From: Saccostrea cucullata
Taxonomy: Eukaryota
DNA length: 64,000 nucleotides
Direction of reading: 5' to 3'
Assembly: GCF_032062105.1 (NCBI RefSeq)
Contig: NW_026918302.1
Span: 62,001 to 126,000 of the forward strand
Shown here: one piece after another, positions 14,201 to 49,335 of the stretch
How positions within the stretch are numbered: position 1 is the stretch's first letter
How the letters are laid out: each line of letters begins with the position of its first letter
The notes under the pieces: model-generated
Database searches by the model: none
What the model was told of the DNA's origin: nothing
Seen by the model: the letters and a program-made list of their open reading frames with translations, nothing else
Translations under genes and position numbers: made by a program

Positions 14201-17200
14201 CCGGTACATTATGTGCATTTTAATTATATATTTTTTAAAGTGGAGAGAAATCAAATCAAAGGCAACATTTTTAAGAATGAAGAGAGAGAGATAATGAACT
14301 TTATTACAATGTATATTATTTTCGTGTACATTTGTATCTATTTTGATCCATGAAGAGAAAAAGGCAAAGTACAAACAGATCAACAGTTCATGAATAACTT
14401 TATCAGTTAAATGTATTTCATGATCATTTATAGATTATATTACTCCAGCCTTGTCTTAGCATTTTATTTTAATGAAATTATCTATTTTTAGCTAAGTCAC
14501 GACCACCATGATATCAAGGGAACCAGAAGTAGATCCTGGGCTGTACCAGAAAGAAAGCATCGTAACTCAGTTGGTGATAGGAAGTCAAGTTCCCATGATG
14601 CTATGGCACTTGCACCACCTTTTGCATCTCCAAAACAGGAGAGCATCTTATGCATGTCTGATGAGCATGCTGTTCCCTCCTCCATAAGTATGAAAATATT
14701 ACTCTCATTTACCGGTAGAATATTTAGAGTTGTTTGATTCGTAATAGATGATGTAGATTTTCGACAGCGTGACATATTTGTATTTGCTTTCTAATTCCTT
14801 TATTTGTAATCTTGAATCCTAAAATTACAGGAGTATTATTCATAATTCTATCCCACTGCCCCAGTCAAATATCACTTCAGTGTAATGAACAACATATTAC
14901 CATTATTACCTTATGTCATTTAAAAACACCTGATACTCAGCAGCTAAGTGGTATGTTCATATGTGTAGATCAATTCATATATCGATATACAGGATGTACA
15001 AGCATATGATGACTGAATAATACCTGTATTATATAAATATTGATTTTAATGTAATATTATGGTATTTGTTTATAGGATCAAATTGACTAACATGTTACAT
15101 TTGTAATATAGCACTGTCTAAACTGAAAATATTGATCTCAAAGACAAAACTATATTGACAAATTTTTTGCCACATATGCAAGTCTGTGCTTTGAAGGCTA
15201 AATTGTTTTTCAAATTTGTGTAAGTCTGGGCTTTATATAACAGGAGAAAGCACAAGTCCAGAAGAAACCAAGACCTTGGCGCGGGAATCTTTAAGGACAG
15301 TTCTACGTAAATCTGGTTCCGAGTCTCCAACAAGGGATGCTCCAGATTTTAGTTTCTATGACAATTTAAATAGTGATCCTCTCCTAAATATAGAATTCAG
15401 TGATGAAATGAACCATAGGGATCCCTCCTTAAAGGAAGTGGTGTCCACTCCACAGCTGGTCAATCATAAGTCCAAAAAGGTCATTGTCAGGAGCCAGTCA
15501 GATATGGGAATTTCCAAAACCTCGGCTGTGATTAAAAATATATACAAAGATAATGAGGACTTTAGCCACGAAACACCGGCGTCTGTGAGTAGACTTGAAG
15601 ACATTTTCTCAGACTCTGAATGTCCTCCAAAGGGAGAAGAAAAGGAAAAGGCCAAAGTGAAAGCAAAAGGACATAAGAGGTCAAGGTCAGATCAAGGAGG
15701 GGTCAAGGTGGAGAAAATGACACAAAAGGAGAATAAGGTTTCAGCAGAAGGAAAAGGAGTAGTAATATATGAAAATAAAGGTTTGTAAACTTTTATCCTA
15801 CATATAAATATCAAGGAACATGAACATGTATTATACAGTACATCAATCAACCAACACAAGTTTTATGACAAATGACATTCACTTATGGATATATTATTAA
15901 GTTGCATGTTATGCTGCAAATACAGTACATGTATCCTTTAAAGTTATAAGTAACCCATACAACAAATTGTTGGATATTACATGGAAATGATGTTTCAAAT
16001 ATTGAAATAATTAAATTTTTGAAATGGATATTGAAAAGTCTATGCCTTATTTAAATATCGAATTTTTATACATCATGTGGCTTTTTAATTAAAGATGTAC
16101 CAGGGGAGGGAACATTTAAACAACCGCTACAGGGACAGTCCCTCATTAATTACCTGTCCTCCCAGGATTTCCACACCTGTGCCAATCTAGACAAGGTAAG
16201 AAATTACAGGTACATGTGTATAATGTCATGATTTTAATTGTACAGTGAACAGGTGCTTGAATTTTGACTATTATTTGAATCCTATTTTTTTTAAAAACCT
16301 GTAAAGAGGTAATGGTTGTGAAAAAGATTTTTCATTTTAGAAATTGAAGGTTCATAAGAGAAATTTTTAATTTCTCATATTAAGAATATCAGTTTTCATT
16401 CAAAAGAAAATTAACATGAGGTATATTACAATAAGTTGTGAATCCTTCTTGTTTTACTTTATAATTTACAGGAGAATGCCCATTTTAGTATTTCTGAGGC
16501 CTTAATAGCAGCCATTGAGCAGATGAAGTGGAACCATGTGATAAGTCCCAAAATACGCGAGGATGTGGATGAAGAGGATTCAGACGAGGAAATCAACAAA
16601 CTAAAACAACGAATCCGGATCAGAAAGCAACAAAAACTAAGGGAGGTAAGTCAACAAACTAAACGAATCCGGACCAGAAATCAACAGAAACTATGGGAGG
16701 TAAGTCAACAAACTAAACGAATCCGGACCAGAAATCAACAGAAACTATGGGAGGTAAGTCAACAAACTAAAACAACGAATCCGGATCAGAAAGCAACAGA
16801 AACCAAGGGAGGTAATCAACAAACTAAAAAAAAATTAATCCGGATCAGAAAGCAACAAAAACTCAGGGAGGTAAGTCAACTAACCAAACAACGAATCCAA
16901 ATCAGAAAAACAACAGAAACTTAGGGAGGTACGGAAAAAATCCTAAACAATAAACCTGGATTAGATATCAGTAGAAACTTAGTGAGTAAGAAAAATAAAC
17001 TTCAACATTGAATCTGGATCAAAGACCAATAGAAAGTAAGGGGGGTAAAAAAAAAAAAAGAAATTTAAGGTCCATAAGCAAAAAATTTTTCTACTTTTTC
17101 TCTTTCACAGAGAGCCAAATTTTTCCCTACATCAAGTGATGGACTGACTGAAAGTAAGTAATTCATAATTTCACTTTTTCACAAGAAGTACTCAACTCTC

Positions 17201-19228
17201 ACTTGATTTTTTTTTTTTCATTTTGTTTATTTGCTTCTATGTACACTGATAATTTTTTTGTACTTTGAATTCTAGTCACAAATATAATTTCATATTTGTT
17301 TTTATTTGTATAGTATAGCATACTTTTGTTTTATAAGTACTTTTGGGCTTTTAATATCCACTATATTTTCATTTTATCAGCTGCTACTACTAGCAAGAGT
17401 CCTTCATCAGTTTTAAGTTCATCCTTCCAAAATAATACAGGTGTGCATTGATATTTGTATTCAAATGTTGAAGTTTGAGTGAATTAAGAACTAGTTAACA
17501 TCTTTTAGTTTAATGCATGTAAATACATTTGTTAATCAAATAATCAGATATATTCAGAAATACATACACTGTATTCACTTCGTGACGAAACATACATATG
17601 TACTTTCAATGATTTCTTTCTATGATTATAAAATATCATTATTTCCTGCATATGTTTGTTTAACTTTTCTCTTTTATTTCACTTCTCAGACAGCAGTGAT
17701 TCTGAAGCTGGGGTGGAAGAAATTGAGTTTACAAGTAAGTTGTCTTTCACTTAATGCACCAGTATTTAGAAATTAAAAATCTAGTAAATTACAATAAACT
17801 TTATTCATAAAATGGGTTGTGCAAGGGCTTTTTAAAAAAAACTTCAAATAAAGAGAAGTTATGTAAAATCCAAAGGCACCTTAGGTTGCACACATCTACC
17901 CCATACCAAGCATTACCTGAACACTCAGCACTACAAAATTTAAATCCTGTTACATGTACCATGATGGCATCCCAGATCAGTGCTAATTAACGTCTACATG
18001 TAGCTTCTGTATATATTGTTCAGGGAAAAATAAATCAACACTTTCCATACAGGAGTCTGAAATTTTAATTACTAACAATTCAAGTTGTAATTCTGTATGT
18101 TAAAAATAAAAGACAGACTTGTCAGAATAGCTGTAACATCATGATAAATAGAATACTACATATGGAATACTGATACATTTTTTTCCATTCAGCAAAAAGA
18201 GAAACAAATCTAAAATAAAGCACCATACAAATGGTGTGATGACAGATGATTGTGAAAATGAAAAAAAAATCAGTTTCTGACAATTCACTTTTAATGCAAC
18301 TGAATTATACAGTTTCAGATAATGAACAAGAAAATGAGGAAAATTTGAGTTTACTCAAATCCAAAGGGCTTTCATTATCCCTGGCTTCACTATACTCAGG
18401 TATGCACTTCAGTCCAAACCTTACCTCTGCTTGCTTACTTCGCAAAGTTTTGATTTCGAGTCCAACCAAGACAGAGAATCGATTGAGTCTGTCAAAGTTT
18501 TAAATTTTCTGATAAAAAATTATTTGTCACTTGTCTGTTTATCTGTATCCTTCTCCAAAACAAGAAATGTACATCAGTTGAAAGCAAAAATTTGATGTTA
18601 AACAGTTTATGGAAATCCTAAAAGACCTTATTTATCCCAATTTGTGCTACTCAGGTGAGTGTAGTTGCACATGAGCCTCTTGTTATTTTGATGCACTGAG
18701 CATGTGAAAGATTTCAAGAAAAAATTGCTTTTATTTTGTTTTAAAAAACTTAATTAATGTTAAAATCATTTCCTCCAAATGAAGTCAGAATATTAATCTC
18801 CAGTATATTTGCTTAATTACATTTACTGAATGACCACTTTCTTTTAAAGATGCTGATTTACAAAAGGTTAAACCTGACAGACAAAGGTAAGTTTTATGGT
18901 ATTGAATGTATGATTTTTCGTTACCATTGTGCTATATTGTAACAATAAAGTTAAATTTTTGAAACCATGCACGATGCTAGAGTAAAAATCTGAGTTGAGT
19001 TTGGACACGAGGTCAAAGACTCATTTAAAACAGATGTTTCTAAAGATTTTAAAATCTATAGGTTTATGTCTTTGTTGTGCAGTTCTATGGAGGTTTCAGA
19101 CCAGTCTGGAGTATCAGCAGAATCTGTGGCCATTCTTCTACTGAAGAAATTCTCAGAAAAGCAGCTTCCCAAGGCATCTGATTTAGAGTGGCTTGTTCCA
19201 ATTTCTGAGGCACCGCAGGAGGTGAGAG

Positions 19229-19279
<51 letters not shown>

Positions 19280-22200
19280 ACATTAATGTCAGTGAATGTG
19301 TGGTGTCACGGATTATCCGCGGATTTATGTATCGTACGTAACGTTATTGTTACGTCACAATACTGTACGTTATGTTTCTATAGTTAATAACAGAGTCTAA
19401 AATAAACCACTATACGATCAAGATGCATTTCTATTCTTTCCACAACAATTTTGGTGCCGTGATCGACGGAATGTCTACATAATACGTAAAATGGAAGGAA
19501 GACTGAAAGCCATACGGGCCGGTAACAGATCAGCGGTGACGAAACTTTTCGGACGATTTTTGGACTTGAAAGAAAATACAGCCAGTGAAGTAACGGGGGA
19601 AATCGAAATAATCAGAAAGTCCCTAACGCAAAAAAGACAAACTCTACAAGAACTAAATGAACGCATATTAGACGCATTATCTGAAGAGGACATAGAAGAA
19701 GAAATCACAAACACAGATGAGTATATGTACGAATTAGACTGCAAAATTAAGAAAACAGAAAAATTTACGATAAGGTTTCATGTAAAACTTTGAACGCCAG
19801 TGCTGAGTGTTTTGTACCCGCCTTAGAAATTCATGATAGTAACGTAAACACAGCAGCTGCAATCAACTCAAGTGAAACGGCTTGTGAGAATATTCTAAAC
19901 AATTTTCCTGCCACTGATCTCGATGAACAAAGTAACCACGATTGGCAGAAAAATGTTTTGTCATTACCATCCAACCAGGCCACAAATAATCATCGACTAC
20001 CGAAACTAAATCTTCCACATTTTGACGGGGATATACTAGAATGGAATACATTTTAGGATTCATACGAATCAACAATTCACCGCAACCAAACTTTAACACC
20101 AATTCAGAAGTTTTCGTATCTCAAGGCTCAATTACAGGACGCAGCAGCACAAACCATTGCAGGATTTACTCTCACAAACGCAAATTATGAAACCGCCATA
20201 GACCTGCTCAAGGAACGGTTTGGTCAACCGCAAAAAATTATCAATGCACACATGAGAGCACTTATGGAACTGCATGCCCCGAGAAACGACGCCATAAGTT
20301 TAAGAAATTATGGAGACTGCTTGGAATCTCAGGTCAGGAGTTTAGAGTGTTTAGGACAAAAACAAGAGATGTACGGAGCTTTACTTATTCCAGTCATAAT
20401 CAACAAGCTACCAGCTGAAATCCGGAAAAACATTGCACGTGAGTACGATGGTGACAACATTTCACTACACAATCTTCGTAAAGCTATCAGCAAAGAAGTC
20501 AAAATCCTTGAATCAGGCCAGATTGAAAACAGCGATGAATTCCACGCAACAGCAATGTTTCTTACCGGAGCCTCAAAGAAACAACGCCATGTTCATAATG
20601 GACACAACCAGAAAACAAGAAAGTCAACTCCTTATGTCGAAAGAACAGAGATAAAGAGCCGCCCATGCATTTATTGTTGCACAGAGAATCACTTTCCAGG
20701 GGACTGTAAGAAAGTTACAGAAGTAAGTACAAGATTCGATATCTTAATATGGAAGAAATTATGTTTCAACTGCTTAGGAAACCACCGCGCCACAGATTGT
20801 AAATCCCGCAACAGATGTAAAAAGTGCCAGAAGAAACACCACACAAGTATATGCGACATGAAACTAACGAGGGACAGAGACGAGCCCACCAAATCAACAA
20901 TTGTCAACATTGTAGGAACGAGCAAACCAAAACTCACAGAAATAAACGTTGAACAACGACATAAAAGTGTTTTATGGAAATCAGCTTCCACTTCTGTGAG
21001 TCGGACTGTGGACTCCATTCAAGAACGTAGCAAGCTGACTAACAAGATAAAGCAACTTAAGTCAGAGCTGAAGTCTAAGACAGAAAGGATTAACGCTTTG
21101 GAACGAGAAAATGGTACCCTGCTAGAGAGATTGTTAAATTTTGACCAACAAAGAAATTTTCAGACTATTGAAGGATATGATGGAACAGATAAATAAACTA
21201 GCGTACGAAAACGGGCGTCTGCATAACGAGGTTCATGAATTACAGAATCAAGTTGTTAATATCAAGACCTACAGCACTCACTTGGAGCATTTTCATGCTA
21301 AAAACAGCAATCTTCAGTCACGATATGATTACGCCCAAAGGCAAATAAGTTGTTGTGGAAAGAATAGAAATGCGTCTTGATCATATAGTGGTTTATTTTA
21401 GACTCTGTTATTAACTATAGAAACATAACGTACAGTATTGTGACGTAACAATAACGTTACGTACGATACATAAATCCGCAGATAATCCGTGACATGTGGA
21501 ATCAAAATCTATTTAGTTGAACTTTTTGAAATATTTCTTTTTTGCTTTGCAGTTACTTCCCTTGCCAAAGTCTTATCCAATATCCCCTGATGATGGGGAA
21601 AGTGAAATGGAAGGATTTACAAACTCTGTGATTGGGGTAAGAAACATGGCAACTTAATGGTTGCATAAGATGTATTTATTTACATGTAAAAAAAAAAGTC
21701 TTTCTAAGACTGCCACACTTTTTGGTCTGACATCTTATTGCAGTGCTTTTTTTTCAGGCATTGAGATTGAGGGGAAACAATGAATGGGCCCCTCCCCGAT
21801 CTCAGATAATTTTTGACATTCATCCATATCAGAAGTGAGTGAAACTTGAAATCAAACTAAGAGCATTATTGTCTTATTTTGTGTCAACTGTGAAAAGGAG
21901 AGTTAATTTTAAATACCCCTAATGTACAGTACATTAAAATATAATAGACAAAAGATAAAAGTTTATTTAAATACAAATGTAATTTGATGAATTTTCAGGA
22001 GAGGGGATGTAATGGAAAAACAGAATTTCCGGTGTGCTGGATGTGGAACCAGAGTTGAACCAGGTAAACCGACTGAGAACTGGTTTTAATTAAATTCTTA
22101 GAAAGCAAAATTTTTGTATATTTTATAGACAGTATAAAAATTATTTCCTTTTGATATACACTGTGTATACATATATGCAGTGTTTGTTTTTCTATTTTTT

Positions 22201-43746: not shown

Positions 43747-44727
43747 AAAGGATATATCGATAAAAATTTTCATCTTAAGAACAGCAAAGCAGCAAAGCCA
43801 TCATATTAATTCAAAAGAAGTGGAGATTTTAAGTTTCTTCAAATCATACCTCCCTGAACCACTTTAAATATCTAAACTTTTCATTACTAAACTGATTTCT
43901 GCTTTTTCTTAGCCAAAGTGCTTTGGTGAGCAATGTGGGCACTGGGCCTCTTTTTTTCAAGTATATTTCATTTTGATTTTTTAGATGTTTTTTTTGACAT
44001 TCTAGCAGGTATATTCAAAGCAAACAGTCTATCATATTAAATCAATTACTGTATAAGTGGAAATTTTAGCAAGATACAAATTTAGCGATTTGTTCTTAAA
44101 ATCTGGAAATTTATTTTTAGCGAGATGTTAATTTAGCGATTTTAAAATGCACATCAAAGTAGCTATTTGAAATAAAACGCAATTAATTTTTAGCGATATT
44201 TAATTTTAATTATCTCAGCACCCTCGCTAATAATGCCAAAATAAAATCCTTGCTAAAAATTCTATTTATCCTGTATATGATATTTGTGATGTTAATCAAA
44301 GTGATACAATACATTTTGGGGTGTGAAAAGTAAAGTTCTGAAATCAGTGAAATATCTTGAGTTCAATTCAAATGATACATGTGAGTAAACTATTGACGTA
44401 ATTTACTATATTGGAAATTCAAATTCTGTCTAGAATTGTGTATCCCTGGAAAAGTTCATTATGGAAGATGATATAGAAAAAGAAGCCAAGGACATCAATT
44501 AATTCTTCTAAAGCTTCTATGCATATAAATATTGTTATTCAAGCAAATTGCAAATAGGGAAGCAGTATTTTTGTGATGATTAAATTTATTCCCCTTATAA
44601 TTTAAAAATACATTATTTTTTCCCAAAAATATACAATTCTGCTAAAAGGTAAAACTTGAAGTAAATTGATAAAAATAAAACATTCATAATGATTTCTTGA
44701 TAGTTTTTTTTAAATTAATATTATTTT

Positions 44728-47208
44728 AGATAAGTGAGAGTGGGGAGTAGGGGAGAAAGAATAGGAGAGAGGGAGTGGAGGCAGTGGTAGAGAAAAGGGG
44801 AGTGGGGAGAATGGGAGGGAGATAGAGAGTAGGAGAGAGAGAAGGGGTGGGGAGAGAGGAGAGTGGGAGAGAGAGGGGAGGATAGTGGGGAGAGAGAGGA
44901 GTGGGGTGAGAGAGGAGTGGGGAGAGAGAGGGAGTGAAGTGGGAGAGAAAGGAGTGGGGAGAGTAGGAGAGAGGGAGCGGGGAGCATGGGAAGGAGAGGA
45001 GTGGGGAGAGAGGAGTGGGAGAGGGAGTGGGGAGAGTGGGAGAGAGAGAGAGAGAGAGAGAGAGAGGAGGTGGATGGAGGGAGAGGAAGGGAGTGGGGAG
45101 AGAGAGGGAGAGAGAGAGGAAGTGGGGAGAGAGAGAGAGGGAATGGGGAGAGAGAGGGAGTGAGGAAAGTGGGAGAGACAGGAGAGAGAGGGAGTGGGGA
45201 GAGTGGGAGAGAGAGGAGTGGGAGAGAGGGAGTTGGTAGAGTGGGAGAGAGAGGAGTGGGGAGAGTGGGAGGGAGAAGAGTGGGGAGACTGGAACAGAGA
45301 GGGAATGGGGAGAGGGAGTTGGTAGAGTGGGAGAGAGAGGGAGTGGGGAGAGAGGGAGTGGGGAGAGTGGAAGAGAGGGAATGGGGGGAGAGGGAGTTCG
45401 TGGAGTGGGAGAGAGAGGAGTGGGGAGAGAGAGGAGTGGGAGAAAGGGAGTGGAGAGAGTGGCAGAGAGAGGGAGTGGGGAGAGTCGGAGAGAGGAGTGG
45501 GAGAGAGGGAGTGGGGAGAGTGGAACAGAGGGAATGGGGAGAAAGGGAGTTGGTAGAGTGGGAGAGAGAGGGAGTTGGTAGAGTGGGAGAGAGAGGAGTG
45601 GGGAGAGTGGGAGAGACAGGAGTGGGGAGAGAGAGGGAGTCGGGAGAGTGGGAGAGAGAGGAGTGGGGAGAGTGAGGAGTGGGAGAGAGAGGGAGTGGGC
45701 AGAGAGGAGTGGGAGAGAGAGGGAGTAGGGAGAGTGGGAGAGAGAGGGAATGGGGAGAGAGATGGGAGTGGGGAAAGTGGGAGAGACAGGAGAGAGAGGG
45801 AGTGGGAAGAGTGGGAGAGAGAGGAGTGGGAGAGAGGGAGGGAGAGGGGAGAGTGGGAGAGAGAGTGGGGAGTGAGAAAGGGAGGGAGTGGGGAGAGAGT
45901 GGGTGAGAAAGACGGAGTGGAAGAGAGAGGGAGTGGGGAGAGAGTTGGAGAGTGGGAGAGAGTGGAGTGGGGAGAGAGGGAATGGGGAGAGGGAGTTGGT
46001 AGTGTGGGTGAGAGAGGGAGTGGGGAGAGAGGGAGTGGGGAGAGTGGGAAGAGAGGAGAGAGGAAGAGAGAGGGAGTGGGGAGAGTGGAGAGAGGGGGAG
46101 AGAGAGGAGTGGGGAGAGAGAGTGAGAGAGAAGAGAGGAGAGAGAGAGAGGGAGAGAGAGGGAGAGAGAGAGAGTGGAGAGAGAGTGGGGAGAGAGAGGG
46201 AGTGGGAGAGTGGAACAGAGGGGAGTGGGGAGAAGGGAGATGAGAGAGTGGGGAGAGAGAGGGAGTTGGGAGAGAGGGAGAGAGAGGAGAGAGAGAGAGA
46301 GGGGAGAGAGGAGTGGGGAGAGAGAGGGAGTGGGGAGAGTGGGCGAGAGAGAGAGGGGAGAGTGAGAGTGGGAGAGAGGGAGAGGGAGAGTGGGAGAGAG
46401 AGGGAATGGGAGAGAGAGAGAGGGAGTTTGGAGAGTGGGAGAGAGAGAGGAGTGGGGAGAGAGAGTGGGAGAGAGAGGAGTGGGGAGAGTGGAGAGAGAG
46501 AGAGAGGAGTGGGGAGAGAGTGGGGATGGAGAGAGGGAGTGGGAGAGAGAGTGGGTGAGCGAAAGGGAGTGGGGAGAGAGTGGGGAGAGAGAGGGAGTGG
46601 GGAGAGTGGGAGAGAGAGTGGGAGAGAGAGAGGAGGGAGAGAGAGAGAGAGAGGAGTGGGAGAGAGAGGGGGAGGAGAGGGAGGAGAGGAGGGGAGAGTG
46701 GGAGAGAGGGAGGGGAGAGAGAGTTGGGAGTGGGAGAGAGAGAGGAGAGTAGAGAGAGAGTGGGGGAGAGAGGGAGAGGGGAGAGAGGAGAGAGAGGGAG
46801 TGGGGAGAGAGGGAGGGGAGAGTGAGGAGAGAGAGAGAGGAGAGTGGGAGAGAGAGGGAGGGAGAGGGAGTGGAGAGAGGGAGAGAGAGGAGTGGGAGAG
46901 AGAGGGAGTGGGAGAGAGGGAGTGGGAGAGAGAGAGGGAGAGAGTGGAGAGAGAGAGAGGGAGATTGGGAGAGAGAGTGGGGAGAGGGAGGGAGAGAGTT
47001 GGGAGAGAGGGAGTGGAGAGTGGGAGGGAGTGGGAGAGAATGGGACAGAGTGGAAAAGTGAAGAGAGAGAGAGGAATGAGAGAGAAAGGGAGTGGGGAGA
47101 GTGGAGAGAGAGAGAGAGTGGAAAGAGAGATAGTGGGGAGAATGGGAGAGAGAGATAGTGGGAAGAGATGGAGAGAGAGAATGGGAGAGTGGGAGAGAGA
47201 CGGGAGAT
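44728..47208. repeat. ~2.5-kb degenerate (GA)n/(GGAGTGGGGAGAGA)n purine-rich simple repeat
   Basis: Plus strand almost entirely G/A with periodic T and very few C; the long E/R/G/W ORFs here are by-products. Confidence 0.97.
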
Positions 47209-49335
47209 TGTAATCTAAGTTTTCAGTTTAAACCCTATATTTTAAAAGTAATCCTAGAGTGTGTTGTGATAAAAATTAAACATGTCCTATGTTGCGCATT
47301 GAAAAGTTAAGTTGAAGTCATTGTCGTCGCCTCCAAATGTCTTTTGCTATGTCTCAGCGCTAGTGGATTTCCAAAATACGGACACCGTGTACGAATGCAT
47401 GAACCTGCCCCTCACAGTCCTTCCAGAAGCACTTGGTCTATCATCTGTGTTCCTAGCTGCTTGAAACGTACGTTTGATCGCTGAAAAGACGATTGATGTA
47501 TACCAAATGCAGTTGTGTCTTTCTGTTACGTAGCTCCAACTAGCTCGGTTGCATTCATCTTTGTTTAGGCGTGACATTGCAGCATCAACATTGCAATCAA
47601 ATTTTAAATATGGGTTTAATAGGAATGTTTATTGTTTCTCTAAATCCAAAATATCAATGAAAATAGACCTCCGATTTACAGGAAATCATGTAAAACACTA
47701 TTTTCATAAACATGATCAATCAAGGGAAATACTTAGTAATTAAACTCTTAGGTTTTAAAAGTTGTCCATTAAATAGGTCTCATGTATCCAATGATAAAAA
47801 AGATATAGTTGTTCCATATACTTTTTCAAAATTTCTTTGATGAGTAAAACAATATGCGTTTCTTTTTTTGTTGAGTATATATGTAACAGAAATAAAGAGG
47901 CTATACTGTAATCATTTTTGACATCTTAAGTATCGGTTACTAAATAGACAGTGAAAATACTAAACAAAACCCTGACAAATATGTGTCAAAACACGACAGA
48001 AAAAGCAAGGTCGGTCGTCCGAACGAGACAGCATGTGATTTAAAAAAATGTTTTTATACGGCTAAAACGAAGTCAAAGACAAAATATTTGTTGAGACAAC
48101 TCAAAGTTGTTTGATTAAATTTTGTTTATTGATTTTAGAATTTGGTATATGTGATTTTTCAACGGTGCGTACAAATTCGAAGACACAACAAGGATTTAAA
48201 AACATGGTTCTTTTTAATGAAAATGGATATTTCTATTCATGACGTTCTTATAAATCTAGCGCAATTATATTGATGACGCTTGAAAATCAGTGTGTATTGT
48301 TGTAAATTTTAATAATTAAACAAATTGTAATCTATACTTAAAGATTATTGCTAGCATTTTGCAGTGTGACATAATAAAGAAAAAATAGAGTGTGTCCATG
48401 AACATGTATTAAAAATTTATCTAAATGTTTGACGTTATAATGAAATTAGTGTAACGTCTGACTGGTCCGTGCGCACTATCCGCGGCCTTTCAAGACCCCG
48501 ATTTTTACAAAAATATAAAGTTACATCAATAAAAATAAAATCTACCTGACTTGGATTTTCATGAGATATATTTTGATATATATTAGAGAGATAGAACTAT
48601 TTATTTTAACAAAAACTTAAATGTCCACGAACTTTTTCGACAACCCTCGTATATACAAAATACTAACTGCGTGATGTTGACCTTGAAACTTGCGTAAAAC
48701 TACCTGTAAATAGTACCATTTAACATTAATCTTAAAACAAACCTTGTTCGTTGTTCTTGTTTTGAAGTGGAGGGGCTTTCTTAAAATATACACTACATTT
48801 GGCAAGACGTTATCAAATCTACTGTGATTTTTGACCTCAGCTACGAACTTAACCTTGAAGCTTGAGAAAATCTATATTGTAGAATTTTTTTTACAAGGAG
48901 GACAGGCTTTCATATATTTGTATTATGCATTACCTGTGACAATACTTTTCAAAAAATACCTTAATGATTTTTTACCCCATTACCTTCACGTCAAAAGTTG
49001 ACTTTTAAAAACTTGAATGTTGGTTCCAAATTTTGCTCAAGAAAAAAATATTTTTTAAAAATTATAAGCATGATGGACATCGAATACATGTCAGGCAAGA
49101 CAGTTACAGTCCAGTTTGGGTATAGAACATAGTTATAGAGATAAATAAATATCTCTGAAGCAACAGAAAACGCTTCCTAACCTAACCTTAAGAAATAAAG
49201 AATTCCTTAAAAACACTAACATGTTTAAATATTTATTTACTTCAAGTACATGTATACAAAAAAGTTGTTTTTGCATACCTTCTGTCATATTGTTTGAATA
49301 ATGCTTATAATGGGAAGGGCTATAGCAGAATCAAA

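Follow-up and report, generated by a model that had tools for sequence, protein, structure and literature searches.

RESULTS

A broken gag element lies in an intron of a Rubicon-like gene

The window, that is, the whole stretch of DNA analyzed here, comprises 64,000 nucleotides of Saccostrea cucullata (contig NW_026918302.1, positions 62,001 to 126,000 of the forward strand). An element of 2,191 bp, with TGTGG on either side, occupies positions 19304 to 21494. It lies on the same strand as, and in an intron of, a Rubicon-like gene (16442-22833) that was recognized by the Pfam domains RUBC_PIKBD (16442-16921) and RH_dom (22468-22830). The element and its flanks have the following features.

19299..19303, no strand: left target-site duplication, TGTGG (from the sequence)
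19304..19447, + strand: 5' LTR, 144 bp, TG...CA, 94-98% identical to the LTRs of most other copies
19452..19462, + strand: primer-binding-site-like sequence directly 3' of the LTR, recognized by position and by conservation among copies; presumably a match to tRNA-His
19491..20995, + strand: BEL/Pao gag, with the N-terminal helical part, the DUF1759 capsid region, Cys/His knuckles, and the first residues of the protease region
20996..21154, + strand: captured CCDC150 exon 8, in frame with gag, 72% nucleotide identity to the host gene (G000:C22768:200032-200192)
21155..21332, + strand: captured CCDC150 exon 9, 79% nucleotide identity to the host gene (200825-200987); the 603-nt intron to exon 8 is gone
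21333..21350, + strand: first 18 nt of captured CCDC150 exon 10, longer in other copies; the 240-nt intron is gone
21351..21494, - strand: entire LTR, inverted, joined at the exact LTR end, unique to the window insertion
21495..21499, no strand: right target-site duplication, TGTGG (from the sequence)

The two 144-bp LTRs of the window element are inverted relative to each other and have 3 mismatches in 144 positions. The BEL gag domain DUF1759 was matched by Pfam (E = 2e-33) in the open frame 20057-21196, which continues into a helical segment. A second helical segment is encoded in the +1 frame at 21138-21380 and ends at a stop within the right repeat; the last 10 codons of this ORF are a chance reading of the inverted LTR. 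An initial annotation, made from the sequence alone, had described both segments correctly, and it had also rightly placed the end of BEL similarity at a VLLxTA-like motif. This 11-residue motif aligns with NVLLKTAIAPV of a pol-bearing relative, in which the match to the DUF1758 protease begins a few residues later.

The window copy itself is dead. Its gag carries a private 1-nt frameshift near 19770, its tail carries a private 14-nt gap near 21167, and the tail is cut at 21350 by the inverted LTR. A stop at 20054-20056 in gag is absent from the second haplotype.

Three further features of the window were recorded. The inverted LTRs could form a 144-bp stem in the pre-mRNA of the Rubicon-like gene. 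Eight tandem copies, of ~58 nt each, of a Rubicon exon end with its donor site lie at 16566-17044. An extremely G/A-rich stretch at 44500-47500, with a GC skew of 0.96-0.99, is probably a simple repeat.

Hybrid copies outnumber their pol-bearing relatives

A DNA search of the same genome with the window element, in which the best 40 of 115 candidates were scored, returned many copies with 83-96% identity over bases 1-2047. Four places run from the same LTR and gag into pol. Pfam matches in the pol of a relative (DUF1758, Peptidase_A17, integrase, and DUF5641) follow the BEL/Pao order. Pol-bearing copies and one hybrid copy (L004) have bases 1-1701 (94% identity) and the 3' end (96%) in common, and the 650 bp between are not shared. 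The parent has no tail, which rules out the tail as a part of pol or an extra ORF of the parent. An unbroken gag-pol frame was found in none of the four pol-bearing copies of this assembly, so a working helper was not seen.

The family has direct TG...CA LTRs and 5-bp target duplications, as BEL/Pao elements do, with the inverted 3' LTR of the window as a departure; DUF1759 is present in the window and in the hybrid, and pol domains are present in the relative with the same LTR and gag. DUF1759 is the sole domain of the hybrid protein, and the junction precedes the catalytic motif of the protease, so the hybrid does not qualify as an autonomous element.

Copies were counted with the first 361 bp of the tail as the query of a tight search, and all 34 candidates were scored. 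The hybrid junction is present at 27 contig places (~22 loci), versus four places at which the start of pol follows. All junction-bearing copies have the gag-tail fusion. In 6 of 21 loci, counted after five second haplotypes had been dropped, an unbroken frame of 725-750 codons extends from the gag ATG through the tail; the other 15 loci are broken or incomplete. Tail residues 503-682 are unbroken in 13 of 22 loci. The initial annotation had proposed an ancestral protein of Gag plus ~120 residues, later broken by a 1-nt indel. The continuous ORF bears out the ancestral fusion, but the unbroken tail is ~245 codons long, ~190 of them in the CCDC150 frame, and the break in the window is the private 14-nt gap. 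An annotated hybrid, called "uncharacterized protein," was also found (P0003).

Exact 5-bp duplications flank 13 of 15 elements checked (11 of 13 hybrids and both pol-bearing copies), and LTR pairs differ at 0-9 of ~144 sites, with four pairs at 0. Insertion was therefore recent.

Other derivatives accompany the hybrids. Mini-elements of 0.3-1.1 kb (L044:4013-4338, L046:1564-2620, L047:1073-1959, and L049:596-1146) consist of LTRs and fragments of the captured tail and contain hardly any gag or none; they are TRIM-like derivatives of the hybrid. LTR-to-tail joints are present in reads of run X21 too. At one locus (L034:491-3904), recombination has combined gag and a portion of pol with an LTR end, 3' tail sequence, and a 3' end of type B (defined below).

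The tail is derived from a spliced host CCDC150 mRNA

A protein search with hybrid tail residues 503-720, which covered proteins up to 1,309 aa, gave 38 matches among 814 candidates; these were oyster CCDC150 proteins and one annotated hybrid (91%) and nothing else. The best host match was Saccostrea CCDC150 (64% identity; E = 5e-59), and this protein maps at ~100% on G000:C22768. At the DNA level, the tail consists of five host exon pieces with 75-89% nucleotide identity: exons 8, 9, and 10, the last 48 nt of exon 12, and part of exon 13. The GT-AG introns of CCDC150 are missing between the captured exons. Exon 11 and the greater part of exon 12 are missing through an in-frame deletion at a repeated A-rich word, and a 1-nt loss common to the copies shifts the exon 13 part into another frame. 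A protein tree joins the tail to the host CCDC150 protein of this genome. Seven residues are common only to the tail and this protein, and 47 residue changes fall on the tail side versus 2 on the host side. On these grounds, the donor came from this oyster lineage.

Pfam gave only generic coiled-coil matches, below the cut-off, for the window tail and no match at E = 1e-4 for the host protein (P0004). The structure prediction that the initial annotation had recommended, run with AlphaFold2 on a natural unbroken tail copy, gave one long helix (H2-140 and H143-193; mean pLDDT, 89). By this model, the host fold would be retained; a use for the helix does not follow from it.

Hybrids in other organisms were also sought. 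Among the 38 protein matches of near length, only P0003 also had gag. A search of shorter proteins with the tail returned one host fragment (1 of 51 candidates), and among 27 tail matches in a representative library, none joins gag and tail as judged by the matched range, with the same outcome for three that were checked by Pfam. The origin of the tail as captured host CCDC150 mRNA is well supported, and we hold it to be very probable.

The initial annotation had argued for an evolved Gag-only lineage. Pol was indeed replaced, not merely deleted, and in many copies; the new domain, though, is a captured, spliced CCDC150 fragment and did not evolve within the element. As the case that would speak against its reading, the initial annotation had named a locus captured in this copy only. 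The tail is captured, but it is present in all junction-bearing copies.

Both junctions lie in microhomology

The 5' junction directly follows the VLLKTA-like motif, about ten residues before the catalytic motif of the protease. It falls on the first base of CCDC150 exon 8, within the microhomology G-GTRAGTCA, where parent and host agree at 8 of 9 nt. Two types of 3' junction were found. In type B copies, it lies in an 8-nt word of exon 13 that is common to parent and host, GATCGAGT. Type A copies return to the parent earlier, at a 6-nt word, and therefore keep ~290 bp of the pol end and 3' region. The initial annotation had argued that a simple internal deletion would leave pol remnants or a PPT. 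Copies other than that of the window do retain the sequence before the 3' LTR and, in type A, a 3' pol remnant.

As in LTR-mediated retrocopies, host exons are joined without introns, the insert is flanked by discontinuous parts of one LTR element, and microhomology is present at both switch points, of which the 5' point is compatible with splicing too. We conclude, with a probability of roughly 0.8, that the broken element of the window belongs to a BEL/Pao LTR family of many copies whose pol was replaced by a fragment of spliced CCDC150 mRNA, in frame with gag, likely through two template switches of reverse transcriptase (RT), and which likely spread with enzymes from pol-bearing relatives.

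Read-through followed by splicing and then by a template switch is the classical route by which retroviruses captured oncogenes. In the present case, an element lying upstream in CCDC150 might have given a read-through transcript in which a donor at the protease start was joined to the exon 8 acceptor, so that only the 3' junction would stem from a template switch. The position of the 5' junction on the first base of exon 8 fits this route, as does a donor-like CCG/CCT-GTGAGT at the junction point in the four pol-bearing copies. However, the first bases of exon 8 are themselves GTAAGTCA, which lets microhomology account for this junction point too. At the one distinguishing base, 19 of the 20 hybrids listed carry the G of the element, not the A of the host, and no remnant of an element was found within 30 kb of the host CCDC150 locus. 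We consider this route unlikely and prefer two template switches.

The first captured codon is ATG instead of GTG in 18 of the 20 hybrids listed (L003-L029), a change that removed the donor-like GT and placed a Met, in frame, at the beginning of the host-derived part. GTG is kept only at the window site, where the splice-donor-like word at 20996 is likewise retained.

Hybrids have probably recombined repeatedly with pol-bearing copies

The last 80 bp before the junction are 69-83% like the present pol-bearing copies, and the gag upstream of them is 91-98% like these copies. In the gag tree, gags of pol-bearing copies are interleaved with those of hybrids, and a single clade of pol-bearing gags was rejected (AU test, P = 2.6e-5). 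Type A and type B ends are mixed on the tail tree, although no branch of that mixing is starred. From these trees and identities, we infer that the capture is old and that the hybrids have since recombined with the helper time and again, as would be expected from co-packaging.

Part of the gag-tail stretch is contained in 20 public runs from 12 studies and two organisms. The junction is bridged by contigs of runs X13 (organism A) and X3, both of which are only guessed to be RNA runs. In the two runs that are recorded as RNA, the tail is covered but no contig spans the junction: X15 has no cover there, and contigs of X20 start only ~16 nt before it. A 30-nt loose end of host CCDC150 from organism A has four silent differences from this genome, a weak hint that organism A may be another species that shares the hybrid. 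A 9-nt in-frame deletion in the tail (L004:3513), common to three copies here, is also present in contigs of organism A (runs X1 and X15); tail variants are therefore shared between the two organisms.

The inverted 3' LTR is a one-off rearrangement

Among 30 fetched loci, an inverted LTR was present in two, namely that of the window and another contig that represents the same insertion site. The 3' LTR is direct in 22 of the remaining 28 loci, and none was in view in the other six. The run of the tail into an inverted LTR, which the initial annotation had presented as a feature of the element, is thus peculiar to the window insertion, since the other copies have direct LTRs. Both outer ends of the window element are the same LTR end, the target duplication is normal, and the inner joint lies precisely at the opposite end of the LTR. 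The inversion took away the remaining tail and the 3' region of this copy. A one-off replication error, perhaps an aberrant strand transfer or self-integration, would account for this arrangement if normal integration came afterwards. A literature search for inverted LTRs of retrotransposons arising from aberrant strand transfer returned nothing.

In DIRS-like elements, inverted repeats are a family trait that is accompanied by a tyrosine recombinase and the absence of target duplications. The element studied here has its inversion at one site only, an integrase-type pol in its relatives, and a 5-bp duplication, and it does not belong to that group.

The inverted LTR and the fusion together could have been an assembly artifact or an accident of one locus, as the restriction of the inverted LTR to one insertion (two contigs of the same site) might suggest. 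However, five raw reads of run X21, from two start places, carry the inverted joint; X21 may be the assembly's own sample, so these reads exclude misassembly only. The fusion itself was found at 27 contig places, which refutes an assembly artifact as its source, and in contigs of two public runs. We regard this explanation as having practically no chance of being correct.

Other rearrangements of LTRs were seen at four loci, namely an insertion nested in opposite orientation (L011:1046-4650), an additional LTR in tandem (L007:3878-4184), LTR pieces in scrambled order (L013:671-1006), and a copy arranged head to head (L037). Judging by these cases, LTR rearrangements are frequent in the hybrid family.

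The capsid is strongly constrained and the tail weakly

Omega was estimated from unbroken stretches only. Among copies, it was 0.16 for the capsid region (11 copies; P = 3e-19) and 0.75 for the tail (13 copies; P = 0.04 against 1; range, 0.67-0.77). On internal branches, the tail value was 0.67, no different from 1 (P = 0.26), and the linker region (0.61) was similar to the tail. Judged from these codon comparisons, the capsid domain is strongly constrained among present copies and the tail weakly. The dN/dS analysis across copies proposed in the initial annotation thus gave the constraint in the capsid but little of it in the coiled-coil part. The low value for gag could have been imported from helpers by recombination.

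The tail differs from the host at 15-16% of 0-fold sites versus 46-49% of 4-fold sites, a ratio of 0.21-0.25; assigning half of the silent change to the host branch raises it to 0.42-0.51. A pairwise codon model of tail versus host gave an omega of 0.10-0.15, a value that we do not rely on for the tail by itself, since the host branch and a shift in composition enter into it. At stop/missense ratios of 0.07-0.09, the 47 or more changes should have brought 3-6 stops into the tail; none is common to the copies. The single tail indel that several copies have in common is in frame, and frameshifts are private. The out-of-frame exon 13 part also has an excess of third-position differences in the host frame (14-16 of 47 versus 5-8 of 46 in three type B copies; L016, with 12 codons, was too short and was left out). 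The low tail-versus-host ratio may therefore partly stem from the host side or predate the frameshift. Constraint on the tail was likely stronger after capture, at about 0.2-0.5. On the best reading of the codon data, the frame has stayed open, probably under constraint early on, and its residues matter little now.

These data bear on the possibility that selection maintains the captured helix for its work in the hybrid Gag, where it would oligomerize or localize Gag and confer an edge over the helper in particle assembly or packaging. Such a role would account for ~190 codons without a stop and with in-frame indels only, despite ~25% nucleotide divergence; for the low ratio to the host, at most about 0.5 even when half of the silent change is assigned to the host; for the long predicted helix; and for the ~5-to-1 excess of hybrids over pol-bearing copies. 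However, the present omega of the tail resembles that of the linker and is unlike that of the capsid, hydrophobic positions are not kept better than others (11 of 37 versus 47 of 144), the advantage in copy number is explicable by shorter length alone, and mini-derivatives without gag exist. We therefore treat this role as a tentative possibility; that the tail is a passenger with a kept frame is more likely than that it is an adopted part.

Ty1 p22 is a truncated Gag made by the element, and Fv1 is a single fixed host gene. The hybrid resembles both in being derived from Gag and lacking pol, and it differs from them in having a full Gag with an added tail and in forming a mobile multi-copy family. 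The initial annotation had suggested that a Gag-only product may serve either in host restriction of the parent, as these proteins do, or as a parasite's own capsid. Constraint on gag is compatible with restriction, and the four pol-bearing copies are all broken and fewer than the hybrids. Against restriction, the copies are dispersed, LTR-flanked, and recent, each with its own target duplication, no single conserved host locus was found, and 15 of 21 loci are broken or incomplete. An Fv1-like gene would be a single fixed locus, without LTRs or immobile, whereas ~22 dispersed LTR-flanked insertions were found here. Restriction is quite improbable, and the parasite's own capsid was the better of the two suggestions. 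The pattern of copies is that of a selfish element, and any interference would be a side effect.

DISCUSSION

The events that produced the hybrid may have run as follows. Element RNA and CCDC150 mRNA would have been co-packaged, and RT would have switched to the mRNA within exon 13 and returned to the element RNA where exon 8 begins. The in-frame deletion of exon 11 and most of exon 12, the 1-nt loss, and a second exchange with the parent, which gave the type A 3' ends, can be read from the copies as the next steps. Hybrids would then supply Gag themselves, package their RNA with it, and depend on the helper for protease, RT, and integrase, recombining with this helper. The tail may be a tolerated helical C-terminal extension, with a frame kept open (translation to near the 3' end) and weak current constraint on its residues.

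In defective gag-onc transducing retroviruses, host cDNA replaces pol in frame with gag, and the viruses are spread by a helper. The oyster hybrid shares the replacement of pol by host cDNA, the in-frame fusion to gag, and, probably, the helper-dependent spread. Unlike these viruses, it has no envelope, spreads in the germ line, carries a non-enzymatic helical fragment, and gives no sign of an effect on the host. The plant TR-GAG elements are gag-only, non-autonomous, helper-dependent LTR elements that are not known to have a captured host coding tail. The hybrid is similar to them in its LTRs, gag, lack of pol, and probable dependence on a helper and differs in its captured tail.

LTR-mediated retrocopies (Tan et al. 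2016, PMC5131818) carry a portion of a host mRNA, free of introns, between two noncontiguous stretches of an LTR element, with microhomology at both switch points and often in frame. The cases described in the passages cited here include a BEL element (mosquito BEL18_AG) and secondary retroposition; most are young (divergence below 1% in Drosophila), and among 21 older cases, 14 are broken. These passages describe no fusion to Gag, and the supplements may hold Gag-fused or multi-copy cases. Relative to the retrocopies of these passages, the insert studied here is ~25% diverged, is in frame with a whole gag, and is present at ~22 loci. The maize LTR element Bs1 has transduced host exons, which are in frame only in part, and was re-amplified, with switch points in common (PMC5131818 and PMC7264820). 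In these respects, it resembles the hybrid. As described in these sources, Bs1 has three donor genes and a copy number of 1-5 (PMC5131818), whereas the hybrid is a mollusc BEL/Pao element with one donor gene that outnumbers its helper and has exchanged gag with it repeatedly. Transduced ORFs in one or few copies are described in PMC7264820, and occasional transduction by LTR elements since the capture of onc genes is described in PMC6431247. Mollusc BEL/Pao clades, including the Sailor lineage (Sparrow/Surcouf/Sinbad) as placed by an RT/RNase H tree, are described in PMC6238403. Literature searches on CCDC150 and on Saccostrea LTR elements gave no report of the hybrid element among the matches listed.

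We conclude that the hybrid is an LTR-mediated capture of host mRNA of the Bs1 or gag-onc type, unusual in its in-frame fusion to Gag, its persistence, and its outnumbering of the helper. Capture of host genes by LTR elements was already known, and in the portions of the literature cited here, the fragments stay at one or few copies and decay. Here the capture is the majority form of the family, and the in-frame fusion to Gag was kept through ~25% divergence. Both junctions, the donor gene, the parent element, and the later recombinants are all readable in one genome. The family also carries a warning for annotation, as hybrid copies get called as genes (P0003). As a natural gag-onc-like case in a mollusc, it allows the question of whether captured fragments are passengers or adopted parts to be tested directly.

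More speculatively, the hybrids and their relatives could constitute a two-part system, in which Gag-CCDC150 elements supply most of the capsid, with the helix as an oligomerizing or localizing stalk, and rare pol-bearing copies supply the enzymes. The pair would have persisted by recombination through 25% divergence and in two oyster species. We think this rather doubtful, but if true, a one-ORF BEL element would have turned into a two-part one, and a fragment of a host coiled-coil protein would serve as a structural part of Gag.
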